A DNA stretch of 64,000 nt from Squalus acanthias (Eukaryota), in assembly GCA_030390025.1 (NCBI GenBank), contig CM059431.1, positions 112,408,001 to 112,472,000 of the forward strand. Direction: 5' to 3'. The notes under the pieces were generated by a model. That model was given only the letters and a program-made list of their open reading frames with translations, made no database searches and was not told the origin of the DNA. Both the position numbers and the translations under genes were made by a program. Shown one piece after another: positions 21,166 through 47,575 of the stretch. Within the stretch, counting starts at the first letter, position 1. Each line of letters begins with the position of its first letter.

Positions 21166-21300
21166 AAAAACCAAGGTGTTGAGATAATTAATGTTTACTT
21201 TAAAGCAAATCATATTTGACATTCCAGAAGGTTGCAACTGGTAACGAAGAAAAAATAAACCTAATCAAAGCATTGCGAGCAATTTTATACAGCTCTCTAC

Positions 21301-22987
21301 TGTAAGGGGTTGTGTCGTGCTTGTATCGCAAGCGGTGCTGGTACGGGGTTAGGCCTTCGTTGCCTAATACTATTGCTTGCTCTGGTCTCCGGCCAGCCTT
21401 GTTGCAATAAGCACCTGTGAGTGGTTCGACCCACTCGCCCTTACGGTTCTAACACTGGACTTAGGTGCGAGAGCAGTAATGCAGAGAAAAACTCAAATAG
21501 ACGCGGTTGAATAGTACGAAATGGAAATCTTTATTGCATAGCGTCCAAGATCATGAAGTACATGTCATAGGCGCAAATTAACGAGAGTACAAGTATACAT
21601 ACATTCATAAAGCTTGTCTATGGTAATGAAGAACGCACGGCACATCGTAAAAAGGGGAACACATTATACTTTATCCTTAATAAAACCACCCTCCCTTATC
21701 AATACCTACACTACATCTAGATTTGTAGGATCGGGAAACATGCTCACCACTCGTGATACTTCGGAGAATTTTAAAGTGAGGCACTCGGCTCGTTTCGCTG
21801 CAGCGCCTGACTGTCACGTGTTTGGAGGGGTCTCTGTACCCCACTTGTTTATCTTCGCTGCTGCGACAAGCAGGCTGGGCTCCCCGTTGTCATGAAGAAC
21901 TCGACAGCACTCGGGCCCGGCTGTAGAACTCAAAGAAAAGTCTTCCTGTACCGACACCAGTTGTCGATAGAATTCGAAGAAGAGTCTTTGACCAGTTCGT
22001 GCAGTAACCTGTAGAGTTCAAGAAATGGGTTGTATATTTTCGGGCGCGGTCGGGGTTTACTGACCGCGGCGGCACGTGGATTCTTCTCCTCTTCTTCTCG
22101 TCTCGTCTCGTCTCTTCTCTTCGGGCCTTCGGGTCCAGACACCGTTTACCGACCCTCGGGATGGTGCACCCGGTCACCGGCCTTCGTCGAGGCGGCTCGT
22201 TCCGTTTGAGCTCCACCCAACATTCGAATAACCGTCCAGTGCGGCTAAAAGTCCAGAGTCAACAGAGTCCAGAGAAACACAGAAGGCTGCTCGTCCAGCA
22301 GAGTTCAGCCCCAGTCAAGAGTCCGCAGAGATAAGAGAAAATAAAGAGGGCGATGGACATTTGTTGTCTATAGTTATAGTGCTGTGTTCCCTTATCTCCC
22401 GCCCAAATCTTAATGTTTGTCCTTTGTGAAATATTGGCGCTCAAAACTCCCAGCATGGGGTGATTCTTGTCTTTAACGGGTTTCGGTAGCACCTGAGACT
22501 GGCCAACTACCCGTTAATGTTTCCCCCATTGTCGAACCGGCTAGGAGCCTCCCTGGCTGGGTTTTGGGGGCCCCCGAATACTTGCTTAATCACCCGAGAA
22601 TGGCTCTCTCATTGTAGAGCCGTGGGGGTATTTGCGTATTGATGTGTCTGGATGGGCCTTCGATTGCCCAGTACAATGGTCCTTACTTGTGCATGGAAAA
22701 CGATTCCAGCACTCATATCTTTTGCTATTGTCACAAATGCAAACAGGTTGCATCCTGTCTTTATCAGTGCTTATCGAGTATGACCCCGTCTTATATTGAA
22801 AATGTTTATTCGAACGCCATCTTGTCTGCCCACTGTACTTCTGGAAACTTCTGCCACGATGCGCGGCGGCCATTTTACAGGCTTCTGTGTCCTGTTTAAT
22901 CATGACAGCATTTCGTTTAAATAAACTGATCAAACGAATCTGCTTCTATCTCGTTATTTCGAATCGCGATAATTGCGAAACTTTACA
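21301..22987 (-). repeat. 3' LTR of provirus A (1687 bp)
   Basis: Direct repeat of 32297-33984; I counted about 4 substitutions and 1 indel; termini TGTAA...TTACA. Confidence 0.97.
21530..21535 (-). terminator. Probable polyadenylation signal of provirus A
   Basis: AATAAA on the minus strand ~230 nt from the LTR end, followed by a U-rich tract; another AATAAA lies at 22805-22810, so the assignment is not unique. Confidence 0.55.
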
Positions 22988-22999
22988 GTCCCTCCTGTT
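22988..22999 (-). promoter_or_regulatory. Polypurine tract of provirus A
   Basis: AACAGGAGGGAC immediately precedes the TG of the 3' LTR. Confidence 0.75.
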
Positions 23000-23385
23000 G
23001 ATGCGAATAACTCCGCTTATCGTATCAATTAAAAGTGGTGGTGAGCAAAATTATCCCGATTCTCCACATCCAAACACTCCCTTAACTTAAAACAATCTAT
23101 GGTCTCCATGCCGTCCTCATTTCCCAGGGAAATTACATTGTTTAAAACTTGGACCAACCGTAGGCAGTATTGCCTTTAAACTTACACTGCGTATACGCCT
23201 TCCTGGTGCAACAGGCCGATGCCTCTCGCACCACCTGTATATGCATGTTTTTATTATACAAGGAATAAAATAATCAAAACCACTCTTTAAAAATACAAAG
23301 TTCCAAACTTAGTTACACATCTTCATAACTAACAATCAATTACAAAAACACACATGGTAAAATGGAGCGGCGTCATCCTGGCCGT

Positions 23386-25709
23386 TTACGCGGTACTTTC
23401 CTCGTTCACGCGCATGTAACGTTCTCTCCACTCTCCTGTGTTCTCCTGCTTTGTGAGGCACTTGCCTCTTTTGCAGTGCACGACCAATAGGTACACTACC
23501 AAAATGTGGGAGGCTATCCTGATCCATGAAGGAACTTCAATATTCGTGAACAGGTCCCACCACGGTGGGATTACTACGTCCAAAATTTCTGTCCCTATTT
23601 CTACTGTTTTCTGTTCCAGGGTGTAAAAATGTTTTTGTGATACCACGACGGCTTTCAAAAGCTTGGTGAGGTGTTCAGGGAGAGGGGGAATGATGTAGCC
23701 GAAATGCGCGACGAATCGTTGCAAGTCGGTGAAATTCTCTTTTACTGTGAGATGAACAGTGGATGGTTCAGGGATCGGGACAATTCGCTGTTGTGCCACT
23801 TGAACTTCAGCCCTGGGTTTAAAACAGAAACTGCTGTCACTCACCGGCTGTGGTTTCCATGCTGGTAGTGTTGCGCTGCAGTGGTAATGCAATATGTTCC
23901 ACCCCCTATGTATGCCACCTGCGGAGGCACATGATCTTGTGTCATTGCCTCCATGGTGCAATTCATGAGCTTGGCGCCAGCCGTTCTGAACCCGCATTGT
24001 GGTGTTAAAAAGGCATTCAAGTGCTGGGGACACAGGATGATGTGTGCTCCCCGGCCACGACAACCCGATAGGTCGGTACCTGTCATCGTTTGCTCCCAGC
24101 GGATGACGTAAGGTGGGACCGCTGCATAGCGAATGTGGGCTCCCCCCTGAATGACACCAATGTTCTCTACCCGATACACCGGGGCGGGCTTTGCTGTGTC
24201 GCCCAAAACCGGCATACGTAGTACTATACCCATGATGGTATGGTTTGACCGTCCGCAGTCCACGGGGACTGGGTATGCCTCTGAGGCTAGCCTGAGCTGG
24301 CACGGGCTTAATGCGTTCTGAAAAGGGTGGAGCGCCTGCAGGTGTTTGTTACTTATCCAGGACGGGACCAAACCTTGTTTTAAATCCTCCAAATTACTGC
24401 GGCCCTCGCCCAGTAACCACGCCCCGTATAGTACGCACACCTCGTTCTGCGCAGCTTGATCGGATGCGTTCCGATCTTCCCTGATCAGGGCATTTACCGT
24501 TCTTGCATGCTTCTCCAGCTCTGCTATAATCTCTTTTAAGTGTAGTGTCATGGCCTGGTCCTCATGTAACTCAGACCCTACTACCTTGTTTTCGCTTGTG
24601 AGGATGCTTTTTAATTGTGTTTTTAAACCGTTGATCTGGGTCTGCAGCTCCACGTTGTCTAGAGCGTTGACCACAGATGTTCCTGTATTAAAGGCGGTGA
24701 ACATATCGTTCACAATACCCCTTCTTTGTCTCCCCACCTGACCCAAAACTTCGTGTGGTGTGGTGTACAAGCTTGTTTTGTCAATCTCTGCAAAATCAAA
24801 CTCGTAGAATTGTCTGAACATGTTTGTCAACAGGACCTGGTACAATTGTTCCGTCTCTTTGGGGCACCACTCTGGTAAACGCACCTCGGTGAGATTTAGA
24901 ATCACCGAGGCCACCGCGTAATGTACCCCCTGAAATAGTATCTGGTCTGTTGGGACCAGTACCAAACCATTCCCGGGCCCCTTAGTGGTTTTAGGGCACC
25001 CTTCCTTTTGAGCCAAAACCACCGGAATCGTGGGCGGAGCCTTGCGTGGGCGCGTGATGAGTTCAGTGGCGTTTACCGGGATCGGGGAGAATGGAGCTCC
25101 GCACCCCTTTGTGCTGACATCCCACCTCATCCCTTTCCCGTTATCCTGCCACTGGTGTACGAAAAATATGGATATACCCTTGGGGCAAACGTATTTCGAT
25201 CCCCACATACAAACATATATTCCCTCATCCGGTTCCCACCATTTGTCCCAACAGACTTTCAATTGTCCGTTAGTCCCCGTAATTGTCCGATGGGTATTGT
25301 TACCCAATCGCTCCCACTCAACCGAGGAATTTCTCATAGTCTTGCTTAACTTCCGTAACCACCACCATCGGCTCAATGGGACCTTCCCATTGCATGTCAA
25401 ACAAATCCTTTTGCCGACGGTGACGCTGATTCTGGGTGCAATGATCCTCACTCTGTGGCACAGTAAAGAAGTCTCTTTGTAGGCAAATCCGGATGCGCTG
25501 GAGTATTCCGTTGAATTCGTTCCCAGCCATCCCGGCCACCTTCCCTTGTGGAAATAAGTGGCGGTCTCCTCAGCCTTTCGCTCCCCGGTCCCATCCGTCG
25601 CGATGGGGCCCGTGTCCCCGGAGCAACCAAACACAACGACATCCTTGGTGAGGCCTCGATAGGCCAATCCATATCCGATCGTTGCGAGCACTATCAGAAT
25701 CCGTTCCAT
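23386..25709 (-). pseudogene. env: Envelope glycoprotein (signal peptide, Ig-like domain, furin site, F-type fusion subunit, TM); one frameshift near 23847
   Basis: 622-aa ORF 25709-23841 continues in another frame (PVSDSSFCF...PPWWDLF...WIRIASHILVVYLLVVHC) to 23386; RQRR|GIVNDMFTAFNTGTSVVN at 24731-24720, heptad repeat, Cys-rich region, multiple N-x-S/T sequons. Confidence 0.9.
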
Positions 25710-25721
25710 CTTTCCTGGTTC

Positions 25722-25740
25722 CTGTGATCAGATAAAATGA
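25722..25740 (-). promoter_or_regulatory. Putative env splice acceptor (provirus A)
   Basis: TCATTTTATCTGATCACAG|G lies 12 nt before the env ATG; provirus B has a stronger acceptor at the equivalent position. Confidence 0.5.
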
Positions 25741-25976
25741 TGTAGCCAGCCTCCCAAGAGTCTCTGGCTTTTGTGAAGGGTGAGCGGGTCCCTTGACCTC
25801 GTCTCACGTAAAAAGACATGTATGCTGGATAGACTTTAACTATTCCTATCACTAAAACTCCCATCACTTTACCATTTACTTTTAAAATTAAACTACAAAC
25901 TTACCAAACTTACAAACTTAAACTTAAACTTATAAACTTATACTGTACAGCGCCGCCCGTTCCCAGGGCGGCCTAC

Positions 25977-26810
25977 CTAAATTCTGCGAAGGCTGCCACG
26001 AGCTTTTCCCAGTGGCGGGGGGGCACTGACCCCTTCCTTTGATCTGCCGCAGCCTGTCGCCGCTGCGCTGGGACTGGGATCTCCCTGGGCTGCCTTGACC
26101 TTGAACTTACGCCTGGGGGCGTACGGGGGACTTGACCACGGCTTCCTGGGCTGGGGTGTCCGACTTGACCTACGGAGGGCTACATTGGGCAAGATTTCCA
26201 GGGCCGACGGACCAGGAACCAAGACTTCCACCGTCACGGCTTGTGGTCCCACCACAGCCGCTGGCTCCGTCTCCCCTGGCTCCGCCTCCCTGAACTCGGG
26301 ATTTGCAGCTTCTGGTTCCACCCTACTTGGCCCAGTATGTGGTCCTCCACTCGCAATCCCTACCTCCCCCAAGGGCAAGACTTCCAGGGCCGACGGACCG
26401 GGTATCGAGACTTCCACCGTCACGACCTGTGGTCCTACCACAGCCGCTGGCTCCGTCTCCCCTAGCTCCGCCCCCCTGGGCTCGGGATCTGCAGTTTCTG
26501 ATTCCACCCTGTGTGGATCTCCACTCGCAGCCCCTATCTCCCCTGAGCTTGAGTCGAGGACGAAACTTCCGTCCTCCGACCCCAGCACCTCTCCGATCGG
26601 GTCACTACCTTGGTCGAGCTCCTCGAGCTCTTCCTCATCTGAATCCCAACACCAAGAAAAGATCCTACACTTTTCTAGAATGTCCTCTCCCCTCACGCAG
26701 GCTGCTTTACTGGTCTGTGTGCCCTGCAGTTCTACCCGGGGCTGCGAGTCCCCACTCGCAGGTTTGGCCCCTGTGGTTGGCCCCTGTGCACCCGGCTTAT
26801 ACAGCTTGCA
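25977..26810 (-). pseudogene. Integrase C-terminal low-complexity extension, cut off by a CAG>TAG stop
   Basis: In frame with pol after WFHIN*CKLYKPG (provirus B reads WFHINQCELYDPG); contains a ~60-aa duplication and LRRSSRTPQPRKPW. Confidence 0.8.
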
Positions 26811-29800
26811 CTAGTTAATGTGGAACCATTTTGTGCGCCGAGGTACCTTTACGGCGTACACCATGGGACTCGCTTTATCTACAATACTGTAGGGCCCCAT
26901 ATACAGTGGTTCCAAACTCCCTACTCTGGCATAGTTCCTAACCATGACCTGATCTCCGACTTCCCACTCCTGCTTCTTACGGGGTTCCAGCAACAGGCGA
27001 TTGCCCTGATGCTGTCTTCCCATGTTCCCAGCTGCCTGCTCGTAAACCTGCTTCAGGCGCTCCAAGAGGGTCTGGACAAACTTGTCCCCTTTCACCTCTT
27101 GGAGCTGACCCTCAGTGAGCACCGGGGCTAGTACATGGGTGGGGGTTCGCATGATCCTCCCAGTCATCACCTCGTACGGGGAATACCCCGTACTTTTCGA
27201 CTGACTGGCCCGGATCCACATGAGGACTAGAGGCAGAACCTCCGCCCATTTTTGGGGCGAGTTCATAGTCTCTTTCCTCAGCTTCTCCTTCAGGGTCCGG
27301 TTCATGCGTTCAACAATCCCTGATGACTGGGGATTGTGCGCTACGTGCCACTTCCCTTCAATGCCCAAAAGCATGAGGGTGTTCTGCATCACCTGGCCGG
27401 TGAAATGACTCCCTTGGTCTGACTCCACGAAACGGGGGAGTCCCCACCGCGAGAACACTTCCCGGACCAAGATCTTGGCAGTACCCAGCGCCGCAGCTGT
27501 TCTACAGGGGAAGGCTTCTACCCATTTGGAAAACACATCCACCAAGACGAGGCAGTATTTGTAGCCTCCCTGGGTGGTGGGCAGGGGCCCTATGTAATCG
27601 ATCTGTATCGACTGCCATGGTCCCTCCACCCTCCTGATGTGCCCCATGTGCACTTTCCTTTTCTGGGGGTCTGGGTTGTTTGCAGCGCACACAAGACAGC
27701 TTGCACAGAACTCGCGGACCTGCTCCCTGAGTCCCGGCCACCATCCCGCCTGCTCTACCCGTTGCCAGGTAACCTCGGGCCCGGGGTGCCCTGCCCCCGG
27801 CCCCTCATGAGCCAACTGGAGGAATTCCCTCCTGTGCTGCTGCGGCACAACCCACTGTTCCTCGCGGAACAGCATGCCTTCTTTAACGGAGAGGGTTGCC
27901 GTACTGTACGGGCCCTCTACCTGCTTGCCCTCAGTAATCGTTCTGAGAACTGTTTTTAGGGCGGGATCCTGGTTCTGGACGGTCTTAAGGTCTAGGGGCA
28001 GTGCTACCCTGGTGTTCCCGGGATTCCCTTCCCTGCCTTGGATCGCTGCCACGGGTCCGGGTCCATAGGGGTCCCAGAAAATGCCGTTACGGGCACCCTC
28101 CCTGGCTAGCGCATCCGCCTGCTGGTTGCCCTCCCCGCGGGGCTCTGTGGAGGAGTGAGCCTTCACCTTATGGTTGAAAATCTCCCCTTCCTCCCCTACT
28201 GCTGCTAGGATCTTTTCCAGCAAGGGCTTCACTGTTAAAGGTCGCCCGTCCGCGGAGGTGTATCCACGGCGGGACCAAATGGCCAGGTATTCCGTACACG
28301 AATTGCACGTAAACATACTGTCCGAACAAATCGTGTATGGGGTTGGGAAAATTTCTGGGTGGGTAACGACGTACGCCACCGCAGACAGCTCAGCCTGCTG
28401 CGCGCTCATGGTGCTGGGGAGTTTAATTGCCAGGGCAAGGTCTGCCGCAGGGTCATAAACTCCACACCCTGTGAGTCGTTCGCCAGCGGACACTGTGCTG
28501 GAACCATCAACATAAATCTCGCGACCTGTGGGATGTATCCCGGCCCGTAAACCTATGTTGACCTCCCACACCCCTTCCACCGAACACCAGTGGGCTGTTC
28601 CGGGGTATACCAAGTTGGCCGCAAGCCTGGGCTCGCAAAGACCTTTAACTCTAAGATCCATCTGGGAAAGGAGAAGGGTCCAGCGCGCAATTCGAGCGCT
28701 GCTTACGGTCCCATCCTTAATCCTCCCATCTAGAAGCATCTTAGTTGGTGTGTGATGGGTGAGGAGAGTGATGGGAGAGAGCCCTGTGAAGATCGCTGAT
28801 CTTTTCACAGCCCAATGCGTGGCTAAAAGATGCCTTTCGCAATTGGAGAAACTCCTCTCCACATCCGTTAACACCCTGGACGAATAGACAACCGGCCTCA
28901 GCTTGCCGTGACGCTCTTGGAGCAGCACGGCGCTCAAGCTGTCTCCGCTGGCAGCTACCTCCAGGAAAAACTCCTTCCTCCCATCTATGGCCCCTAAAGC
29001 TGGCGCGCTCTGCAGATCCCTTTTTAACTTCTCGAATGCTGCCTGGCAACCCTCGTCCCAAGACCACTCCACTCCCTTATGGAGGAGTCGGAGCAGCGGA
29101 GCTGCTGTGGCCGCATAGTCCTCGATGAAGTCTCTACAGTAACCGGTCAGTCCCAGAAAGGACCTCACCCCCGTTATGGTGTTGGGAATCGGTAACTCCT
29201 GCACCGACTCCCTCCTAGCCTTATCTATGGCTCTTTCCCCAGCGCGAATGGTCAGACCTAGGAATTTTACTTCCTGCTGACCGATACGTGCTTTCTTAGG
29301 GTTCACTTTAAAACCCTTTCTCGCTAGCAGCTCCAATAACTTGGCTAGCAGTGGTCCATGCTCCTCCCTTGAGTCCGTGAACAGGAGCAAATCATCCACG
29401 TACTGCACTATCTGATTGGGCTGACTAAACTCCTTTAAACTTCCTGCCATACACTGATGGAAAATACTGGGGCTGTTGTGGAAACCCTGTGGCAAATAGT
29501 TCCATGTGTACTGTTGTCCTTTGAAAGTAAAGGCAAACTTGTACTGGTCCTCTCGCCGCAGCGGGATGGACCAAAAACCGTTCGAGATATCCAGTACCGT
29601 GAACGTGGTCGCGGACGCTGGGATACTCCCTATTAGGTCAGCAACTGCTGCTACTGTGGGCGCGCAGGCGGGGATGTTACTGTTAAGGACTCTGTAGTCC
29701 ACCGTGGCCCTCCACGAATTATCCGGCTTCCTTACCGGCCATAATGGGGAGTTCACGTGTGTGGCTATCGGCCTCAACACGCCCTGCTGCACCAATGAGG

Positions 29801-30467
29801 ACATTGCTGTCTCCATATCGGGTTCTGCTTCTTTGGGGAAGTTATACTGCTTTTGGGGCCGGGTCATGGGGTCCCCGTCTACGCTGACCTCAAACCCGGT
29901 AACCCTCCCACAATCGTGCTTGTGGGTTGCAAACGCGTGCATATTATCTGACACGTACGCTTGCATGTCCGTTGGGACATCCGCGACCATAAGCCCGAGG
30001 TCGTAACCTCCGGATGGCTTCATGGTACACAGGGCCCCTTTACCTTCCTTCCCCGGGATTACAACTACCTTGCCTTTCCCACCCTTGGCTCCCCAGAGAC
30101 AGTGATTCCTAAGGTCCACGAGAATCCCGTGTTCCGATAGGAGATCCGATCCGAGGATACCTCTGCCACCCCCCTCTTGCCATTTCATCAGTATGCACTT
30201 CCATGTGGTGTGGAGTGCTCCTAAATGAATGGAGAGCGGAATGGAGAAGGCGCCAGCCTGCTCTTTTCCCGTGAACCCCGCTAATGTGTATGGGACCTTG
30301 GTAGACAGTGGTGAGTCAAAGGGGCTATCCGTATGAATCACGGTGCATGAAGCTCCCGTGTCCAACAAATAACTACCCTTCTGCTTCTCTACCTCCATCT
30401 CAACCAGGGGTCTTTTCCACGCATCATAGCTGAGCGGACACAGGTAAACGGGCTGCGCGGGCTCTAG
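26811..30467 (-). CDS. pol: Pol: protease, RT, degenerate RNase H tether, RNase H, integrase
   Basis: Open from the gag stop: LLDTGA, LPQGFHNSP, QYVDDLL, tether FFLEVAAS...RPVVYSSR, RNase H IYVDGS/QQAELSA/SDS/GNQQADALA, IN H-H-CxxC, IQIDYIGP, SDQGSHF, GIVERMN, GPY. Confidence 0.96.
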   Translation of the reverse strand, partial: LEPAQPVYLCPLSYDAWKRPLVEMEVEKQKGSYLLDTGASCTVIHTDSPFDSPLSTKVPYTLAGFTGKEQAGAFSIPLSIHLGALHTTWKCILMKWQEGGGRGILGSDLLSEHGILVDLRNHCLWGAKGGKGKVVVIPGKEGKGALCTMKPSGGYDLGLMVADVPTDMQAYVSDNMHAFATHKHDCGRVTGFEVSVDGDPMTRPQKQYNFPKEAEPDMETAMSSLVQQGVLRPIATHVNSPLWPVRKPDNSWRATVDYRVLNSNIPACAPTVAAVADLIGSIPASATTFTVLDISNGFWSIPLRREDQYKFAFTFKGQQYTWNYLPQGFHNSPSIFHQCMAGSLKEFSQPNQIVQYVDDLLLFTDSREEHGPLLAKLLELLARKGFKVNPKKARIGQQEVKFLGLTIRAGERAIDKARRESVQELPIPNTITGVRSFLGLTGYCRDFIEDYAATAAPLLRLLHKGVEWSWDEGCQAAFEKLKRDLQSAPALGAIDGRKEFFLEVAASGDSLSAVLLQERHGKLRPVVYSSRVLTDVERSFSNCERHLLATHWAVKRSAIFTGLSPITLLTHHTPTKMLLDGRIKDGTVSSARIARWTLLLSQMDLRVKGLCEPRLAANLVYPGTAHWCSVEGVWEVNIGLRAGIHPTGREIYVDGSSTVSAGERLTGCGVYDPAADLALAIKLPSTMSAQQAELSAVAYVVTHPEIFPTPYTICSDSMFTCNSCTEYLAIWSRRGYTSADGRPLTVKPLLEKILAAVGEEGEIFNHKVKAHSSTEPRGEGNQQADALAREGARNGIFWDPYGPGPVAAIQGREGNPGNTRVALPLDLKTVQNQDPALKTVLRTITEGKQVEGPYSTATLSVKEGMLFREEQWVVPQQHRREFLQLAHEGPGAGHPGPEVTWQRVEQAGWWPGLREQVREFCASCLVCAANNPDPQKRKVHMGHIRRVEGPWQSIQIDYIGPLPTTQGGYKYCLVLVDVFSKWVEAFPCRTAAALGTAKILVREVFSRWGLPRFVESDQGSHFTGQVMQNTLMLLGIEGKWHVAHNPQSSGIVERMNRTLKEKLRKETMNSPQKWAEVLPLVLMWIRASQSKSTGYSPYEVMTGRIMRTPTHVLAPVLTEGQLQEVKGDKFVQTLLERLKQVYEQAAGNMGRQHQGNRLLLEPRKKQEWEVGDQVMVRNYARVGSLEPLYMGPYSIVDKASPMVYAVKVPRRTKWFHIN

Positions 30468-32219
30468 TCATTGGGTACCGGTGGACGGGGTTGCGGCATC
30501 TGTGAGGCCGGTAGCGACTGCCACCCTTCCTTGCGAAATCATAAGGGACCGCATAGCTCCCAACATTGATTCTGTCGCATCGGGATGGATAGGCACACCA
30601 GCTCCTCTCTCAGAGACAGGCGCTTGGGTTCGGGCTGCGGGATTTTTATCCATGGGGTCCTTCCAGGGGTTCCTACAGTTCTTACGCCAGTGACCTGTCT
30701 TCCCACACCCGTAACAAGCACCACTGGCTTGTGGGGCGCGGTTTCCCTCCTGATGCCACTCCTTTTGAGCCGGGGCTGCGGGCCGTGCCTCATGCACCTT
30801 TCCCTTAAGGGGACGCGCTCCCGTGCTCCTAGTGATACGATACCCTATGGTGAGTCGATTTAGGACCGACTCCTCTGTTGTGGCGGGGTTAGTGGGATCA
30901 AACCACGCTTTGGCCTGCTCCCTGACGGCTGGCAAACTGTTGGCTACTAAACACCTGAGCCAGTGAGTTAAACCGGCACCGTTCAGGTAATCGCGCCCTG
31001 GCGCACCTGGGCAGCTACGCTGGTATACTGGCCACAGCCTGTCGGCGAAAACCTTCGGGGGTTCTCCCTCCATCTGTATGGTTTGACTCAATCTGACGAA
31101 CGGACCTTCGTCATCCGCCCCTAACACTTCTAGGACCTCGTCCCGTAACTCCTCATAGGTTTTATTCCCCTTCTTACTCTCGTCTGAGAGACACTGAAGG
31201 ATCGAGCTATCTAACGAGAACAGCAACATTTTGGTCTTTTCCTCATCGTCGCAGCCATTAATTGCTGCGGTCTGTTCTACCTCCCTAAAGTGTACGGAAG
31301 GGTCGTCTGACTCGGACAGCTTCCGTACATGGCTAATCATTGCTCTCAGCTGGTGTGAGCTGTGAGGCAATACGAGCTGGTTCAGGACATCCCCCTCTGC
31401 CCCATTTGCCCCACCCGGGCCTCTCTTGTGACCTCGGAGCGGACACATCGGTCCCGGTCTCGGCTCTACCTCCGGGGACTGTCCTACCTCGGGAACCTCC
31501 TTCTCTATTTCCACCACTTCCTCCCTTTCCCAGGTTGCCGAATAGCTGGGTGGCGCGGAGGGCGCAGTGGCAAATACCTCCTCTGCTTTGTCTGGTAGGG
31601 ATTTTGGGAATTCCCTACCCACCTGTGACTGGTTTGCTGATGGGCTGATGAGGCACACCAAGCCGTTTGCCTTATTCAGGGCCTCTCTTAGGTTCCCTAA
31701 CTCCTTCTGGCAAACACTGTGGTCGGCTCCCTCATGCCTATCCTCGAGGGCCATCTTATATGCCGCCCTAACTCCCTTCAAGCTTTCTTCCTGGGCTTTT
31801 ATCTGGTTAGCTAGGCGGGCACACCGTTCTCTAATCCTACCCTCGTTTAATTTCGCTTCCGTGATCTGACACTCTAGGTAATCAATTTTAGCCTCATGGT
31901 GGTTGGCTACTATCTGGCGTTCCTGATGTAAAGCATTCAAGGATGCAATGAGTTTCTGTCCTCCCGTGATCTTTTCCTCCATCTCAACTTCCAAATCCCT
32001 GATCTGAGCTGCCTGTGCTACAATGACCTGGTCCGAAAGTTGGACTTGCTTCTTGTAGCACATCAGCCAGACCGCTTTCTCTACCGACTTCTTATGCTCT
32101 TTACTGCCTGTCCATTTGATGGCTGCGTCTAGCGGACGCTTATCCATCAGTAGGTCACTTATCCACCTTTTGGTTAAGTTAACCTTCCCAAACACATAGT
32201 CGGCTACCCTCTCATCCAT
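30468..32219 (-). CDS. gag: Gag: coiled-coil N-terminus, PSAPPSY late domain, capsid, single CCHC zinc knuckle
   Basis: Intact ORF; ATG at 32219 (MDERVADYVFGK) aligns with MEDRISSYVFGK of provirus B; CYGCGKTGHWRKNC. Confidence 0.92.
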   Translation of the reverse strand: MDERVADYVFGKVNLTKRWISDLLMDKRPLDAAIKWTGSKEHKKSVEKAVWLMCYKKQVQLSDQVIVAQAAQIRDLEVEMEEKITGGQKLIASLNALHQERQIVANHHEAKIDYLECQITEAKLNEGRIRERCARLANQIKAQEESLKGVRAAYKMALEDRHEGADHSVCQKELGNLREALNKANGLVCLISPSANQSQVGREFPKSLPDKAEEVFATAPSAPPSYSATWEREEVVEIEKEVPEVGQSPEVEPRPGPMCPLRGHKRGPGGANGAEGDVLNQLVLPHSSHQLRAMISHVRKLSESDDPSVHFREVEQTAAINGCDDEEKTKMLLFSLDSSILQCLSDESKKGNKTYEELRDEVLEVLGADDEGPFVRLSQTIQMEGEPPKVFADRLWPVYQRSCPGAPGRDYLNGAGLTHWLRCLVANSLPAVREQAKAWFDPTNPATTEESVLNRLTIGYRITRSTGARPLKGKVHEARPAAPAQKEWHQEGNRAPQASGACYGCGKTGHWRKNCRNPWKDPMDKNPAARTQAPVSERGAGVPIHPDATESMLGAMRSLMISQGRVAVATGLTDAATPSTGTQ

Positions 32220-32273
32220 CACATTTCGCCTATTCACACCAGGGTCTAAAACATTACTCTCTCGCTGCCAGAG

Positions 32274-32291
32274 TCCTGCCGCGGTCAGCCA
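32274..32291 (-). promoter_or_regulatory. Primer-binding site of provirus A (tRNA-Ser-like)
   Basis: TGGCTGACCGCGGCAGGA 5 nt after the 5' LTR; the TGGC...GCAGGA pattern resembles the complement of tRNA-Ser 3' ends, exact tRNA uncertain. Confidence 0.7.
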
Positions 32292-32296
32292 TTTTC

Positions 32297-33984
32297 TGTA
32301 AGGGGTTGTGTCGTGCTTGTATCGCAGGCGGTGCTGGTACGGGGTTAGGCCTTCGTTGCCTAATACTATTGCTTGCTCTGGTCTCCGGCCAGCCTTGTTG
32401 CAATAAGCACCTGTGAGTGGTTCGACCCACTCGCCCTTACGGTTCTAACACTGGACTTAGGTGCGAGAGCAGTAATGCAGAGAAAAACTCAAATAGACGC
32501 GGTTGAATAGTACGAAATGGAAATCTTTATTGCATAGCGTCCAAGATCATGAAGTACATGTCATAGGCGCAAATTAACGAGAGTACAAGTATACATACAT
32601 TCATAAAGCTTGGTCTATGGTAATGAAGAACGCACGGCACATCGTAAAAAGGGGAACACATTATACTTTATCCTTAATAAAACCACCCTCCCTTATCAAT
32701 ACCTACACTACATCTAGATTTGTAGGATCGGGAAACATGCTCACCACTCGTGATACTTCGGAGAATTTTAAAGTGAGGCACTCGGCTCGTTTCGCTGCAG
32801 CGCCTGACTGTCACGTGTTTGGAGGGGTCTCTGTACCCCACTTGTTTATCTTCGCTGCTGCGACAAGCAGGCTGGGCTCCCCGTTGTCATGAAGAACTCG
32901 ACAGCACTCGGGCCCGGCTGTAGAACTCAAAGAAAAGTCTTCCTGTACCGACACCAGTTGTCGATAGAATTCGAAGAAGAGTCTTTGACCAGTTCGTGCA
33001 GTAACCTGTAGAGTTCAAGAAATGGGTTGTATATTTTCGGGCGCGGTCGGGGTTTACTGACCGCGGCGGCACGTGGATTCTTCTCCTCTTCTTCTCGTCT
33101 CGTCTCGTCTCTTCTCTTCGGGCCTTCGGGTCCAGACACCGTTTACCGACCCTCGGGATGGTGCACCCGGTCACCGGCCTTCGTCGAGGCGGCTCGTTCC
33201 GTTTGAGCTCCACCCAACATTCGAATAACCGTCCAGTGCGGCTAAAAGTCCAGAGTCAACAGAGTCCAGAGAAACACAGAAGGCTGCTCGTCCAGCAGAG
33301 TTCAGCCCCAGTCAAGAGTCCGCAGAGATAAGAGAAAATAAAGAGGGCGATGGACATTTGTTGTCTATAGTTATAGTGCTGTGTTCCCTTATCTCCCGCC
33401 CAAATCTTAATGTTTGTCCTTTGTGAAATATTGGCGCTCAAAACTCCCAGCATGGGGTGATTCTTGTCTTTAACGGGTTTCGGTAGCACCTGAGACTGGC
33501 CAACTACCCGTTAATGTTTCCCCCATTGTCGAACCGGCTAGGAGCCTCCCTGGCTGGGTTTTGGGGGCCCCCGAATACTTGTTTAATCACCCGAGAATGG
33601 CTCTCTCATTGTAGAGCCGTGGGGGTATTTGCGTATTGATGTGTCTGGATGGGCCTTCGATTGCCCAGTACAATGGTCCTTACTTGTGCATGGAAAACGA
33701 TTCCAGCACTCATATCTTTTGCTATTGTCACAAATGCAAACAGGTTGCATCCTGTCTTTATCAGTGCTTATCGAGTATGATCCCGTCTTATATTGAAAAT
33801 GTTTATTCGAACGCCATCTTGTCTGCCCACTGTACTTCTGGAAACTTCTGCCACGATGCGCGGCGGCCATTTTACAGGCTTCTGTGTCCTGTTTAATCAT
33901 GACAGCATTTTGTTTAAATAAACTGATCAAACGAATCTGCTTCTATCTCGTTATTTCGAATCGCGATAATTGCGAAACTTTACA
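32297..33984 (-). repeat. 5' LTR of provirus A (1688 bp)
   Basis: Direct repeat of 21301-22987, adjacent to the PBS. Confidence 0.97.
33366..33434 (-). promoter_or_regulatory. Putative LTR promoter of provirus A (CCAAT, GC-rich box, TATAA)
   Basis: Minus-strand CCAAT 33434-33430, GGCGGGAGA 33400-33392 and TATAA 33375-33371 in canonical order and spacing. Confidence 0.5.
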
Positions 33985-34039
33985 GTACCTCAAAAACAAA
34001 TGATTTAAATCATCACTTTGATTGAAAGAAAATATTGAG

Positions 34040-39401: not shown

Positions 39402-40386
39402 TGTAGGATCTGTTCCTCCCCCTCAACGGTAAAAATTGGACTATGAAATATAAAAACCCAGAACTGCACAGCCCGCAAAAAGAGATGGGCAATAAAGGGT
39501 TAATTCAACATTGCAGCCGAAACTACAAACCATCAAGAGACTGGATCACAGACAACCTAAAATACGAATGCTTCTGAACAAGAACATTTGCATATTCATT
39601 TGCATATTCATTTACATTGTTAAAGAAGACCATGGCCCCAGAATAACTAGTATCAGTGCAGGCCTAGACAATGGGCCGGGCCTTGAACTATTTGAATACG
39701 AATGCTAACAGAAACCAACAACTAGCATATGCAGTCACCTTGGGAAGGTTGCATTCTCAGAAAGGTATCTCTAATCAATGGACAATACGAGGGACAATTA
39801 GCCATCAAGAGTTCTCTGCTAGAGACATTCACACATTTTGCACAGGAAGGGCAGGAAATGTGTTTCAAGATTGCAAGTTGGTTTTGCTTTAAAGGAAGAG
39901 TCACTTCGAAGAGAGTGTTGTGGTGGGAAGCTAACGGAAGAACAGCGAGCAGAAAAATTCAGGGCCTACAATCAACTCCAGGAGACAGCCGACCGGGAGT
40001 GGTGATTGTATGTTTCAGTCAAATCATAGAGGGGGCTTTTGTGATTGAGTCTGAGTAAGTTGTAAGTTTCAGTCAGATCACAATAAGGGTTTTTGTGATT
40101 GAGTCTGGGTAACTTTATATGTAACAGCCAAATCGCGGACGGGTTTAACTGTGTCATATTATGCCAATGCAAATGACCCTTGCGTAGAGGTTTGTATTTT
40201 GGGGTTGTTAGTCTAATATAAATCATAGGGATTTATACTGGGAAGGTAACTGTGTGTGTGTTTAATAAATGAACGAATCAAAGGTTGAGCCAAAACCTTG
40301 TGCCGTGTGTATTTTGTTCTTATAAATCCTGACGTCCAAGAACTGTGTGTGTAACGGGGGACCAGTAACGGAGAAAACCCCTTACA
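39402..40386 (+). repeat. 5' LTR of provirus B (985 bp)
   Basis: TGTAGGATC...CCCCTTACA; direct repeat of 47576-48563, roughly 95% identical by eye. Confidence 0.95.
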
Positions 40387-40391
40387 GAACC

Positions 40392-40408
40392 TGGCGACCG
40401 CAGCAGGA
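40392..40408 (+). promoter_or_regulatory. Primer-binding site of provirus B (tRNA-Ser-like)
   Basis: TGGCGACCGCAGCAGGA, 5 nt after the LTR, nearly identical to the provirus A PBS. Confidence 0.75.
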
Positions 40409-40461
40409 CATTCAAGGTTTAGAACAAAATTATGGACAGGGTTAAGTGCAAGAAACCCGTG

Positions 40462-42113
40462 ATGGAGGATAGGATATCCTCGTATGTGTTTGGGAAAGTA
40501 AACATTCCCGAGCACTGGATGCGGGAAATGTTACACTCTGACAGTCCATATGAGAAAGCGGGAGCGTGGACGGGTAGTAGCGTACATAAGAAATCGAAGG
40601 AAAAGGCGATTTGGCTAATATGTATGCAGAAACAAATTCAGATGCTCACAGAGAAAGTTGAGCGTTTGGGAAAAGAGAAACAGGAATCAGAATGTAGGGC
40701 AGGAGGGAGAGAGGCCGTAGTGAACTGGCTGACAGAAGATTTGAGCTTTGAAAGGCAGAAGAGAAAAGCGCAGGAAGAAACAGCTAGAAACACGTTAGAG
40801 TACCTGCAATGTCAGGTCACCGAAAGTAGAAGGCAGTGTCAGGCTCAGCGTGAGGAAGGTAATAGGAACTCAGAGAGAGCTGACAAGGCTGAGGAGCAGT
40901 TAAAAGATATAAAGGTGGTCTACAGGGTAGCCAAAAACCTGGTACATGAAGAGGCCGATCACAGGCTCTGTAATGAAAAAATCCATAAGTTGACCCTAGC
41001 ATTATCCCGGGCGAGGGGTATGGTTTGTCTCATGGCACCAAGGGAAGTTGGGGTAGACTGGGATGAGGAGGAAAAGGAGCCCGATGATGGGATCCAGTAT
41101 AGAGAGGTTCGACCGGCTCCCGAAGCACAGGGACCGCCGGGACCGATGTGTCCCCTGTGACAGCAAAAGTTCGGTCCACCCCCACAAGGCGGCAGTCAGG
41201 GGCCATTGCAGAGTGATTATGTGCTTCCCTATATGTCCCTTCAGTTGCAGGAAATGCTGGCCAGTGTGCCGAAACTGAAGCACGGAGTGGTTGCCTCTGT
41301 TCATTTTGCCAATGTAGAGCAGATAGGGGGGATCAATAATTGTGACGACGACGAACGGAAAAAGCTGGTATTGTTCTCTCTAGATGAGAAGCTGTACCAG
41401 GTTTTGTTGGCAGCCATTAAGTTAGGAGGGGGTACCCTGGACGGGGTAAAAGACAAAATTTTAATGGCGCTGGGACATAGCCAGGGCAGCCCATACTTGC
41501 AGGTCGAGCAGACCAGACAATTGGTTGGCGAGGCACCGGATGCATTCGCAGACAGGTTGTGGCCCGTGTATCTGAAAGCGATGGGGAGAAATCTAGCCCG
41601 AGCACAGTTGTTAGGGGCTCCCAGGAATCATTGGTTGAGGACCCTAGTGGCTAACAGCCTGCCACGGATCAGGGCTAGGGCGGAATCATGGTTCGACTCC
41701 GAGGATGTTAATAATACAGAGCCAGGCGTGTTAAGGAAACTGACTCTGGCTTTTAAATCCGACTGAGGGGAGGAGAATAAACAAAAGGAAAAAGTACACA
41801 AGATGAAGGGAAGCGTGGATGGTAGAAAAGAATGGAAGCAGGAGGGGGGTAAGGTGGACAGATCCCAGGCGTGCTTTAACTGTGGGAGAATGGGACACTG
41901 GAACAGGGAGTGCAAGTTCCCAAAAAGGGAAAAACCAGGATACGGGGGTCCCTCAGGGTCAAAACCGCGGGTAGTAGAGGCAGAGAAGGAGAGGGTAGAA
42001 GACCCGGTGGAACTTCTAGTGACCGCGTTATGGCAGTTATGGGCAAAGACCAGGGAAAGCTGGACGCTGCCGTATGCAGTGAAAAGCCCAGCGCGCCCCC
42101 ACTTCTCCCATGA
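40462..42113 (+). pseudogene. gag: gag of provirus B, disrupted
   Basis: Homologous to provirus A Gag (AIWLICMQKQ, GPMCPL, FADRLWPVY, HWLRTLVANSLP, CFNCGRMGHWNREC); stops at 41158 and 41764 and a late frameshift. Confidence 0.9.
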
Positions 42114-45100
42114 CTAGGACGCACCCAGCCTGAGTACCTGTGCCCGCTCACCTACGATGAGTGGGGCAGACCTTGTGTAGAGATCAGGGTAGAGGCCTGT
42201 TCAGGGAAAGTATCTAGTGGACACCAGAGCTTCCAGTACAGTGGATCACTCACCAAACCCGACCACTTCTCCATGGTCAAGCAGAGTCCCGTTTAAGTTA
42301 GTGGGTTTCACAGGGAGCAAGGAAACTGGGGCGGTATCGAAACCTTTGTCTATAAGGTTAGGACCCCTTGTCACTAAGTGGGAATGCGTACTGATGCAAT
42401 GGAATCAGCCCGGCGCGGGGGTCCTCGGAGCTGATTTTATGCTGGCCCACTATGTGATCTTGGATATGAGAAACCACTGTCTATGGGGGGTGGTTGGTTC
42501 AGATAAACCTGAGGAAGTTCTAGTTATCCCCAAGGTGGAGAAAGTGAAAGGTAGCGCCTGTACTATGAAACCGAAGGGTGGCTATGACTTGGAACAATTG
42601 GTCCGTAGCACCCCGGAAAGGTATCGGGGATATGTGAAAAATAATCTCGCAGTGTTCGCCACTCACTGACATGACTGTGGTAGGGTAACAGGGGTAGAGG
42701 TGGAGGTACACGGGGACCCAATGTCACGACCTCAGAAACAGTATAGTTTTCCCCGGGAGGCAGAGAAGGACATGGAAACTGCACTGAGCTCCCTCGTGGA
42801 ACAAGTGGGTACTGAGACCGATAGCGACCCACGTAAATTCACCCCATGGCCAGTTAAGAAGCCCAATCAGTCATGGAGAGCCATGGTAGACTACCGGGTT
42901 CTTAATAAAGGTATTCCAGCATGCGCGCCCACGGTAGCAGCAGTAGCCGATCTAATAGGGAATATCCCTGCGGAGGCAACGACATTCACTGTATTGGACA
43001 TAGCTAACGGGTCCTGGTCTCTCCCAGTAAGACGGGAGGATCAGTATAAATTTGCCTTTACATTCAAAGGGCAACAGTATACGTGGTCATGCCTCCCGCA
43101 AGGGTTTCATAACAGTCCCTGAATTTTCCATCAGTGTATGGCTAATGCTTTAAAGAATTTCAGTCAGCCTAGCCAGTTGATCCAGTACATGGATGACCTA
43201 TTATTATTCTCAGAAATTGCAGAGGACCACAGGCCACTACTGGACGAGTTACTAAAGCTGTTGGGGGAGGCAGGGTTTAAGGCAAACCCCAAGAAAGCCC
43301 AAATAGGACAGGAGGAGGTGAAATTCTTAGGATTGACGATTAGGGCAGGGGAAAAGGCTATAGACGAGGCGAAGAGGAGGGCAATACAGGAACTACCCGC
43401 TCCAAAGAGCAACTGGGGTGAGATCTTTTCTTAGTATGACAGGGTATTGCAGGGATTTTATTGAAGGCTATGCAGCCACAGCAGCCCCTTTGCTTAGACT
43501 CCTTAGGAAAGGAGTAGGATGGGAATGGGATGAGAGTTGTAAGGAGGCATTTACTCGCCGAAAGGAAAATTTACAAACGGCACCCGCACTAGGAGCAATA
43601 AACGGGAACGAAGATTTTTATCTGGAGGTAGCAGATACTGGGGATAGTTTGAGTGCAGTGTTGCTCCAAGAACGGCCTGACAAGTTGAGGCCAGTAGCTT
43701 ATGCCTCCCGAGTCCTGACAGATGTAGAGAGGGGTTACTCGAACTGCGAAAGACACCTTCTGGCGAGCTATTGGGCCGTCAAACGTTTCCAATTATTTAT
43801 GGGGTTATCTTTAATAACCTTACTGACATGTCATACCCCGACACAGATGCTATTGGATGGGAGGTTAAAAGATGGGACAGTGAGTAGCAGTCGTATTGCC
43901 CGCTGGACATTGCTACTCTCCCAGATGAACCTGAGGGTGGAAAGATTGGCGGAACCTAAGCTGGCCTCGAACATGAGTTATCTAGGGACGAATCACATGT
44001 GCACAGTAGAAGGGGTATGGGATGTAGACGTGGGATTCCGGGCCGGGCAACATCCGACAGGGAGCGATATATATGTGGATGGGTCCAGCTCGGTGATAAA
44101 CGGAGAGCGTAGGGCAGGGTGTGGAATTTATGACCCAGGGGCTGGAATAGAGTAAGCCATCAAACTCCCCAGCACACTGAGTGCACAGCAGGCCGAGCTG
44201 GCGGCTGTAGCTTATGTGGTCACGCATCCCGAGGAATTCCCAACCCCCTGCACAATATGCTCAGACTCGATGTTCACGTGCAATTCTTGCACTGAATATC
44301 TGGCAATATGGGCTAGACGAGGATTCAAGTCCGCCGACGGGAAACCGTCAGTAATCGTCCCACTGCTGAACACAATCCTGGGCGTAACGGGCAATAAAGG
44401 GGAGTATTACATTCAAAAAGTAAAGGCGCACTCAAAAACCGAGCCTAAGTGGAAAGGTAACCGGAAGGCCGACGAGTTGGCAAAAAAGGGGGCCAGGGTG
44501 GGAGTACTTTGGGACCCGTAGCGATCTGGACAGATCGCGGCCATAAGGGATATGGAGGGCCCACCGGAGGTGACGTTGCCCCCAGACCTGACCCAGGTTC
44601 AAGCACAAGATACGGTTTTAAAAACCGTGATTAAGAAAAGGGTAGAAGAGGAATCAATTGAGATATAGTGGTCAAAGAGGGGATGCTGTTTAAAGGGGAA
44701 AGGCGGATCATGCCCACACAGTACCGGGAGGAATTTATGCAGCTAGCTCACGGGGGTCCGGGAGCTGGACATCCAGGGCTGGAAACTACCTGGAAGAAAG
44801 TGGAGGAGGTGGCTTGGTGGCCTCATCTCAGGGAAGAGGTGAAGGAATATTGCAGGGAGTGCCTAGTGTGCGCTGTGAACAATCCAGACCCCCACCGTAG
44901 AAAGGCACCATTGGGACACGTTAGGAGGGTAGAGGGACCATGGCATTCTATACAAATAGACTTCATTGGGCCCCTGCCCACCACAAAAGCAGGCAACAAG
45001 TATTGTCTGGTGTTGGTGGACGTTTTCTCTAAGTGGGTTGAGGCCTTCCTTTGTTGAACAGCCACAGCATTAAACACGGCTAAGATCCTAGTAAGGGGCG

Positions 45101-45990
45101 TGTTCTCCCGATGGAGATTGCCCCAGGTAGTGGAATCAGATCAGGGGAGCTATTTCACAGGACAAGTCATGCAGACCACCCTGAAACTTTTAGGGATACA
45201 GGGAAAATGGCATGTGGCCCACAACCCCCAATCATCGGGAATAGTGGAAAGGATGAACCGGACCTTAAAGGAAAGGCTTAGGAAGGAGATAGGGGGGTAC
45301 CCAAAGAAATGGGACGAGGTCCTGCCTCTAGTTCTCATGAATATCAGGGCCAGCCTCTCCAAAAGCGCAGGACACTCTCCGTATGAGCTGATGACCGGTA
45401 GGGCGATGAGGACCCCAACTCATGTGTTGGTACCGGTCCTGACCGAAGCTCAAATGAGGGAGGTCAACCAGGACAGGTTCATAAAAGACTTGTATGAGAC
45501 CTTGAGGAAAGTACAATGGGAAGCCGCAAATAACATGGGCAGCCTGCACCAGAAGAATAGAATGCTGTTAGAGCCACAGAAAGTACAAGAGTGGAAGGTA
45601 GGGGACCAGGTCATGGTGAGAAATTATGCCCGGGTAGGGGCTTTCGAGCCACTGTATGTGGGGCCGTACAGTATAGTGGACAAGGCAAGCCCTATGGTTT
45701 ACGCAGTGCAGCTGCCAAAACAGACAAAGTGGTTCCACATTAATCAATGTGAACTCTATGACCCCGGGAAGAGGGGAATAAAACAAACCAGAGCCCAGGG
45801 AACGATCACGAGTTTCACCAATGGAAGTTTTCCTCCCATATTGTGGGATGATGACGAAAACCCAGAGAGTGGAGCGGTGAGAAGGAGTAGTCGAACACCC
45901 CGACCTAGGGTGCCTTGGACGCCTCATCGCACACCGACCCCGAGCCACAAGAGGTCCCAACCGAACAGTCAGGAAAAAGGGACGCGGTGA
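42114..45990 (+). pseudogene. pol: pol of provirus B, multiple stops and frameshifts
   Basis: Fragments LVDTRA, LPQGFHNSP, YMDDLL, IYVDGS, IQIDFIGP, SDQG, GIVERMN, collinear with provirus A Pol. Confidence 0.93.
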
Positions 45991-46070
45991 TTGTAGAAAT
46001 CACAGCATGTATAATATCTATATAACTTAAGTTTGACCTGTGGAGGGAAGGCCTCTCACAGAGCGTTGCT

Positions 46071-46094
46071 ATTTTCCTTTTCTTTTATTTGCAG
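46071..46094 (+). promoter_or_regulatory. Putative env splice acceptor (provirus B)
   Basis: ATTTTCCTTTTCTTTTATTTGCAG, 25 nt upstream of ATGGATCAGATC (46120). Confidence 0.65.
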
Positions 46095-46119
46095 AGGTGA
46101 GTCGAACGGAGGACGCAGG

Positions 46120-47446: not shown

Positions 47447-47563
47447 AATCAAATGTATAGAATGTGTAAAAAAAAAAGGAATGTGAGATTTGGCTGGGAC
47501 CGACAATGGACTCTCCACGGCAAAAGAATGGACGGGAGTAATATCTCTAATGTAAGAGATATT

Positions 47564-47575
47564 AAAGGGGGGAGA
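47564..47575 (+). promoter_or_regulatory. Polypurine tract of provirus B
   Basis: AAAGGGGGGAGA abuts the TG of the 3' LTR. Confidence 0.85.

Follow-up and report, generated by a model that had tools for sequence, protein, structure and literature searches.

In gammaretroviruses the surface subunit (SU) of the cleaved class I envelope protein (Env) comprises an N-terminal beta-sandwich receptor-binding domain, a proline-rich region and a C-domain, so the general design of a head joined by a linker to a core is already known. To our knowledge, the receptor-binding domain of murine leukaemia virus (MLV) lacks the Cys-Trp-Cys triad of the immunoglobulin superfamily (IgSF), and the fusion (F) proteins of paramyxoviruses and pneumoviruses have no N-terminal immunoglobulin (Ig) module and are normally paired with a separate attachment protein. 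Virus-encoded Ig-like domains are found in IgSF proteins of pox-, herpes- and adenoviruses, but these are separate accessory proteins of DNA viruses and not a domain of a fusogen. The analysis described here concerns a 64,000-nucleotide stretch of the genome of Squalus acanthias (assembly GCA_030390025.1, contig CM059431.1, positions 112,408,001 to 112,472,000 of the forward strand; hereafter the window, with positions counted from its first letter). It holds two endogenous proviruses, A and B, and the N-terminus of the Env of each carries a canonical IgSF signature; the module concerned very probably folds as an Ig domain and is proposed to be the receptor-binding head of the protein.

The env open reading frame (ORF) of provirus A occupies positions 23841-25709 on the reverse strand (622 codons). 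Positions 25155-25454 (-) translate exactly to Env residues 86-185, which read RVRIIAPRISVTVGKRICLTC...WWWLRK...QLKVCW...DEGIYVC and include GKRICLTC. The cysteines are at residues 103, 106, 153 and 167, tryptophans at 115-117 and the DEGIYVC motif at 161-167; translation thus confirms the motifs quoted in a sequence-only reading of this DNA, including the Cys106-Cys167 spacing of 61. That reading had also stated that provirus B keeps the signature together with a second Cys pair, and this too is correct: the signature lies at 46388-46594 (+), within an N-terminal env ORF of 301 codons (46139..47044, +), the N-terminal modules of the two proviruses being 43% identical. A signature pattern (G..h.h.C, a Trp after 8-18 residues, and [DE].[GAS].Y.C after a further 30-70) has two matches in the six-frame translation of the window, one in each env gene, and none in 200 block shuffles.

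All 18 rows of alignment A1 keep the motif, at 43-74% identity to the window copy. Cys106 and Cys167 are each present in at least 90% of the 18 rows and their spacing is within the IgSF range of about 55-75. Trp117, which is 11 residues past Cys106 (about 10-15 in the IgSF), is invariant in this alignment and pairs with the C-strand Trp of CD8alpha, while the F-strand motif (DEGIYVC in provirus A, EQGVYVC in provirus B) falls opposite ENEGYYFC in CD8alpha and DEGVYKC in CRTAM. The module therefore shares with IgSF V/I-set domains (CD8alpha, CRTAM, IgNAR V, T-cell receptor (TCR) and antibody V domains, and Pfam Ig_3, PF13927) a Cys, a Trp and a D/ExGxYxC motif at canonical spacing. It differs from them in its low identity, its sub-threshold profile matches, the extra pair Cys103-Cys153 and extra N- and C-terminal strands and, unlike the usual members of the family, it is situated within a viral envelope protein.

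Profile searches point to the same fold. As a single sequence, the window copy matched in the PDB only three antibody light-chain V domains (E 0.7-1.6). When a profile of A1 was compared with all PDB sequences, V domains of CD8alpha accounted for six of the nine matches (E 0.049-0.09), and a full-length profile (A3) gave seven matches, among them CD8alpha and the V domain of CRTAM (E 0.083 and 0.2). These alignments are in register at the B-strand Cys, the C-strand Trp and the YxC motif and, for CRTAM, at the G strand as well. In Pfam, Ig_3 was matched by 11 of the 23 members of a wider set of relatives (A2), at E 9.5e-4 at best; apart from it, zf-dskA_traR alone was matched by more than one member (two members). 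The Ig_3 scores printed for three proteins are 14-17 bits, under the 30-bit cut-off; the Pfam check proposed in the sequence-only reading gave Ig matches among the relatives, below the curated cut-off, and none for the window copy itself.

AlphaFold2 (AF2) models Env residues 18-243 as an all-beta module (pLDDT 67, pTM 0.69) in which the core strand blocks reach 83-91. On the predicted strands, Cys106 is placed on B, Trp117 on C and Cys167 on F, and the second Cys pair on B (Cys103) and E (Cys153). Foldseek against the PDB returned 34 matches at E<=1e-3, and the entries listed are all antibody V-domain chains (TM 0.53-0.66 by target). Comparison of the same model with 48,161 representative chains by VIA-align gave Ig folds in all of the top 50 rows, led by skate IgNAR V and chicken CD8aa (Z 8.8 each) and followed by TCR V, titin, telokin and NCAM; about 97 residues superpose at a root-mean-square deviation of about 3 Å, with an identity to solved Ig domains of 8-18%. 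A second model, of a relative 58% identical in sequence, again gave only Ig folds in its top 50 (CD8aa Z 8.3, 94 residues, 2.3 Å), and overall the predicted sandwich superposes on IgSF domains over some 94-98 residues at 2.3-3.2 Å. Structural matches to the V-set and the I-set were tied. The second model, of 770 residues and made from a relative whose env frame is uninterrupted, has a mean pLDDT of 39 and is confident only at residues ~10-205. A look-up of the module in the ESM Atlas yielded no usable match.

The structural alignments start at model residue ~13-15 and run to ~204, beyond 66-171, and since they reach past the core the module probably consists of an Ig core with added strands (residues ~21-57 and 212-219). 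The pre-Ig segment contains beta strands with pLDDT 70-89 in both models. Sequence, profiles and the two models all place the core at Env residues 86-190 (25140..25454, -; strands A-G), and it is highly likely that residues ~83-190 form an Ig V/I-set-like beta-sandwich, with predicted disulfides Cys106-Cys167 and Cys103-Cys153. The claim of the sequence-only reading that an Ig-type domain stands at the N-terminus of a retroviral Env in both proviruses is in this way supported by the profiles and by two AF2 models, and the AlphaFold and Foldseek check that it had called for turned out in its favour.

Selection on the module was assessed with 10 env copies that have uninterrupted frames and in which the subfamilies are represented, drawn from 26 env-bearing sequences (A, B and L032 to L058). 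In the Ig region the proportion of nonsynonymous differences (pN 0.03-0.34) is below that of synonymous differences (pS 0.07-0.91) in all 45 pairs, and omega is 0.10-0.42 in the 4 of 12 pairs with unsaturated dS. The Ig domain is under purifying selection across diverged subfamilies. Column entropy is 1.27 bits in loops and 0.98 bits in strands (p 0.04), a modest contrast; the most variable parts are the FG, BC and C-D loops and strand A, and the most conserved are strands C, E and F. The pattern, modest as the contrast is, is that of an Ig framework with variable loops resembling complementarity-determining regions (CDRs). In one copy (L058:304-1005) a (GT)n-type expansion, read as CVCVCVCACVCV, lies within the part of the Ig module made up of the F strand and FG loop.

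In other Env proteins a common core was found beneath different heads. The homology of a sawshark Env (P0013) to the Env family of provirus A starts only at CPxxTKGP (hhalign probability 97.9), its N-terminal 175 residues being different from the Ig module, and in a search of the S. acanthias genome with P0013 nearly all of the 104 scored matches start at query residues ~140-180. Members of this lineage in the same genome (L059, L062 and L065) have at the N-terminus yet another module, which is rich in Cys and leads into a Pro/Thr-rich linker, and show neither the Ig signature nor an Ig match in Pfam. Among the other Env lineages, too, the core is common from CPxxTxGPxNG on and the N-terminal modules are unrelated, each with its Pro/Thr-rich linker. 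In provirus A, Env residues 191-237 (24999..25139, -) contain Cys203, an invariant NATEL sequon on a predicted strand and then a Pro-rich stretch, so that the linker which the sequence-only reading had described between Ig domain and fusogen is indeed present ahead of the core; the core itself begins in residues 238-330 (24720..24998, -) with the CPxxTKGPxNG motif common to all lineages.

A receptor-binding role is preferred for the Ig module because one fusion core carries interchangeable heads on flexible linkers. Argued from this modularity, the probability that the module is the receptor-binding (attachment) domain is put at roughly 0.6. The protein is laid out as a presumed signal peptide, the Ig module of ~200 residues, the Pro-rich linker, ~95 residues leading to the cleavage site RQRR and a fusion subunit of ~450 residues, in which the fusion peptide and a long heptad helix come first, then a Cys-rich beta region, and last a second heptad region with the membrane anchor. 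The Ig sandwich with its packed extra strands (residues ~21-57 and 212-219) would be the membrane-distal N-terminal module of the surface subunit; a molecule on the cell surface would be bound by its BC, C-D and FG loops, the equivalents of CDRs, and through the linker this binding would trigger the fusion core.

How the domain came to be there is a separate question. The sequence-only reading had spoken of a captured host Ig domain, but no donor gene was found: a profile search of 1.84 billion representative proteins gave 12 matches, all of them env relatives, and no host IgSF gene was among them. Capture of a host IgSF exon is plausible. Alternatively, the module could be an old viral beta-sandwich which resembles the IgSF by convergence or through extreme divergence and was not captured within this lineage. 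The outcome of the protein search is as would be expected in that case, as are the 8-18% identity to solved Ig domains and the finding that every sampled subfamily and four elasmobranch species already carry the module. However, a generic sandwich would show less than the full Cys-Trp-DxGxYxC triad with its canonical spacing and the alignments in register with CD8alpha, CRTAM and Ig_3; furthermore, related Env lineages do not have the module, and this suggests gain rather than ancestry. An old viral origin is accordingly a serious contender, though the balance of evidence is somewhat against it. The more specific proposal, that a V-type IgSF domain was taken over from the host in a retrovirus-like lineage of sharks and skates, where it serves as an exchangeable head for receptor binding on a conserved class I core with F-like features, is advanced tentatively and is itself rather unlikely to be right in full.

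It is also possible to accept the Ig module as real and yet deny it receptor binding; it would then be a glycan shield or cap, or an immune-modulating or decoy surface mimicking host IgSF proteins, with attachment falling to a different part of Env or to a different factor. Sequons are conserved at N65 and N213 and more are present in loops at N127 and N137; the nearest viral structural matches in BFVD are the immune-modulating IgSF proteins of poxviruses (hemagglutinin), herpesviruses (vIgFam/UL8) and adenoviruses (CR1); and the Ig region does not show excess divergence. All three points would suit a shield or decoy, but the BFVD matches are weak (best E 1.6e-3, TM ~0.3), differing heads on a common core fit target recognition better than a generic cap, and no separate attachment gene is evident in provirus A from pol to the 3' long terminal repeat (LTR), as judged from the ORF list and Pfam. 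A shield or decoy is therefore improbable.

Several observations weigh against an Ig-fold, receptor-binding head. The window copy's own module has no Pfam match at all, and every sequence-profile match is under significance or curated thresholds. Only one of the five AF2 models reached pLDDT 67, the others standing at 51, 41, 36 and 34, and the motif itself may draw AF2 toward an Ig fold. According to the tool, VIA-align Z values of 7-8.8 are in a range common for models without a clear match; since values of 7-8 are so often met, the weight rests on the uniformity of the hits and their near-complete coverage of the domain. The best-conserved motif of the module, WPGWLGSNST, falls outside the Ig core. 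Finally, divergence in the Ig region does not exceed that of the remaining surface subunit, whereas receptor-binding domains often evolve fastest. That there is no Ig fold, the motif being a chance resemblance on which AlphaFold imposed an Ig template-like solution, would accord with the low confidence of four of the five models and with the sub-threshold matches, but is very improbable given that the signature is absent from all 200 shuffles, that three independent profile searches converge on V domains in register, that two models of sequences 58% identical share their strand order and matched Ig folds only, and that the Cys and Trp positions are conserved under purifying selection. No one of the four lines of evidence is decisive alone; they agree, and an Ig fold is very probable.

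The remainder of the Env of provirus A can be described from the N-terminus. Residues 1-18 (25656..25709, -) are hydrophobic (MERILIVLATIGYGLAYR) and are presumably a signal peptide. The pre-Ig segment, residues 19-85 (25455..25655, -), contains Cys29, Cys84 and the near-invariant WPGWLGSNST of alignment A1 (residues 58-67, 25509-25538, -), which with several invariant columns is the most conserved stretch of the N-terminal module and has low confidence in each of the two AF2 models; its role may be that of a functional loop or of a contact surface for the fusion core. At the end of the segment formed by residues 238-330 is the furin-type site RQRR (residues 327-330, 24720-24731, -), followed by GIVNDMFTAFNTGTSVVNAL, which by its sequence resembles a fusion peptide. 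Residues 331-622 (23844..24719, -) contain this segment, a long heptad helix and a Cys-rich beta region, as judged from the low-confidence model of a relative and from alignment A5. In relatives, a long predicted helix comes after the fusion peptide, and beyond it are ~230 residues of Cys-rich beta region, a C-terminal helix and an anchor. This is a class I fusogen, with ~95 residues ahead of the cleavage site and a fusion subunit of ~450 residues. The env of the window copy goes out of frame near its 3' end, at ~23.84-23.86 kb, and the C-terminal heptad region, membrane anchor and tail are in another frame (ORF 23386-23997, -). Contigs from three of four sequencing runs carry a short indel relative to the window copy at ~23841.

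This layout resembles that of the paramyxovirus and pneumovirus F proteins (PF00523), in which ~95 residues likewise precede a furin site, a fusion peptide and a long heptad repeat A, and in which repeat A is succeeded by a beta-rich Cys region (~230 residues), by heptad repeat B and by an anchor; no homology to F is, however, detectable by profiles. PF00523 was matched at E<=10 by none of 10 fusion-core sequences (A4) and by none of 5 and 2 sequences from other lineages, and no F chain is among the PDB matches of profiles A1, A3 and A5. A search of the whole S. acanthias genome for PF00523 gave no match but is uninformative, as it used a stricter first look with which the controls gave nothing either. 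The fusion part of the relative's 770-residue model is poorly folded (pLDDT ~20-40). The description of the core as an F-type fusogen in the sequence-only reading is therefore not upheld beyond the resemblance in layout. Nor does the Env match the gammaretroviral kind: the window Env has no match to TLV_coat or any other Env family of Pfam, there is no sequence similarity to gammaretroviral SU, and the fusion subunit of ~450 residues with its Cys-rich beta region is unlike the short CX6CC type of gammaretroviruses.

The element had also been labelled a lokiretrovirus. In the available parts of the paper that describes them (Wang and Han 2020, PMC7947760), lokiretroviruses are endogenous retroviruses (ERVs) of non-mammalian vertebrates with a second RNase H-like region in pol and with an Env made up of signal peptide, RX(K/R)R site, fusion peptide, coiled coil and anchor, all of which is also seen here. 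Their Env is reported there to be similar to PF00523 (E 2.2e-7), whereas the shark Env has no PF00523 match at E<=10. By Pfam, the pol of provirus A shows the tether and second RNase H feature of lokiretroviruses, but this double arrangement does not discriminate because it is common to retroviruses and Odin elements, and by pairwise score pol is about equally near to Ty3, MLV-type and foamy virus reverse transcriptases (RTs). In Table S2 of PMC7947760, as far as available, Salmo trutta, a known host, bears an asterisk, and five cartilaginous-fish genomes (Callorhinchus, two Chiloscyllium species, Rhincodon and Leucoraja) do not. With no PF00523 match, an undiscriminating pol score and cartilaginous fishes unmarked in that part of the table, the label is not supported. 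The main text of PMC7947760 that was available does not contain the words "immunoglobulin", "receptor" or "surface", and no N-terminal Ig module is described in it.

Provirus A extends from LTR to LTR over 12.7 kb (21300..33991, -), with gag, pol and env ORFs in between. Its 3' LTR (21300..22994, -; blastn of the two ends and direct repeats) and 5' LTR (32296..33991, -; blastn of the two ends) are 99.65% identical across 1696 nt. The gag ORF (30471..32444, -) has 658 codons from stop to stop in the ORF list and a sub-threshold match to the CCHC zinc knuckle (PF00098, E 0.0021, slightly under its cut-off). A single stop codon at 30468-30470 (-) parts it from pol in the same frame, an arrangement that is expressed by readthrough in gamma- and epsilonretroviruses. 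The pol ORF (26814..30467, -) encodes protease, RT, a Ty3-type RNase H-like connection, RNase H and integrase, with Pfam matches to RVT_1 (1.8e-35), RT_RNaseH_2 (1e-21), RNase_H (2.3e-19), Integrase_H2C2 (1.1e-17) and rve (5.6e-15). RT_RNaseH_2 and RT_RNaseH cover pol residues 447-579 and RNase_H covers 627-769. The best PDB matches of pol are Ty3 (249 bits), an RT of the xenotropic MLV-related virus (XMRV)/MLV type (235) and foamy virus protease-RT (217), with prototype foamy virus (PFV) integrase also matched. After the in-frame stop of pol there is a same-frame ORF of 277 codons (25977-26813, -), which is acidic and Pro-rich, contains an internal repeat ~60 residues long and matches no Pfam family; in provirus B the equivalent junction is open. 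Contigs from four presumed-RNA sequencing runs hold fragments that span the whole of provirus A, although contigs cannot show expression, and no gag-to-env joint was seen in them.

Provirus B (39402..48563, +; 9.2 kb) is older and degraded; its LTRs, 39402-40386 and 47576-48563, are 95.3% identical and its gag and pol are broken into many ORFs.

Copies of the module were sought in the 3.7 Gb of the S. acanthias genome. At least 150 scored copies of the A type, out of 5,974 candidates, are 96-100% identical in protein sequence, and by hand count ~47 of the 150 A-type rows listed lie in a 789-codon open frame. The B type and other subfamilies are 57-95% identical among the 150 copies scored of 6,036 candidates. 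Both candidate lists (5,974 and 6,036, with 150 scored in each) were filled by the module's own copies. A mis-joined host exon was considered as the source of the module and rejected, as the module lies within one continuous ORF of an LTR-flanked provirus and is present in at least 150 scored copies. Every sampled subfamily has the Ig module, as do four elasmobranch species. Relatives of env that carry a species name belong to Rhinoraja longicauda, Pristiophorus japonicus, Rhincodon typus and Scyliorhinus torazame. When homologues were sought with the N-terminal part, with the C-terminal part and with a core profile, 4, 4 and 14 matches were obtained. Those with a species name are all elasmobranch (R. 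longicauda, P. japonicus and S. torazame), and the others from the core profile are metagenome or run contigs; no bony-fish, amphibian or reptile Env was reached in these word-based searches. The family of provirus A is a young, very high-copy ERV family of sharks and skates. That it is young enough for recent infectivity, as the near-identical LTRs and the many long open env frames would allow, belongs to the exchangeable-head proposal and is held just as tentatively.

In public gene models P0004, P0005, P0024 and P0010, env fragments are fused to host genes (zinc-finger, Niban-like and cadherin-related); these fusions are probably annotation chimeras. In the whale-shark model P0010, the coiled-coil 5' ORF of the element is joined directly to the start of env, as it would be in a spliced env mRNA.

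The sequence-only reading knew of no account of an Ig domain on a retroviral Env, and this still stands: in the full-text literature, with subscription journals outside its coverage, no description was found of an Ig domain in such an Env or of the family of provirus A in cartilaginous fishes. The same holds for an Ig domain in such an Env in the available parts of PMC7947760, PMC9040795, PMC13709493, PMC12440569, PMC10699275 and bioRxiv 10.1101/2023.10.26.564294 and 10.1101/2024.03.25.586437. The new element is the canonical IgSF signature on a retroelement fusogen. Class I envelopes are composed of a receptor-binding head and a fusion machine, and the origin of the heads is mostly unknown; the Env described here provides a concrete, testable case of modular head exchange, possibly through gene capture from the immune or adhesion repertoire of the host. 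It also documents a very abundant and recently active ERV family in cartilaginous fishes, none of which is marked as a host in the available part of the PMC7947760 screen. If the proposal is true, no retroelement fusogen with a canonical IgSF domain would have been known before this one, which would also be an instance of natural head-swapping on one fusion machine.

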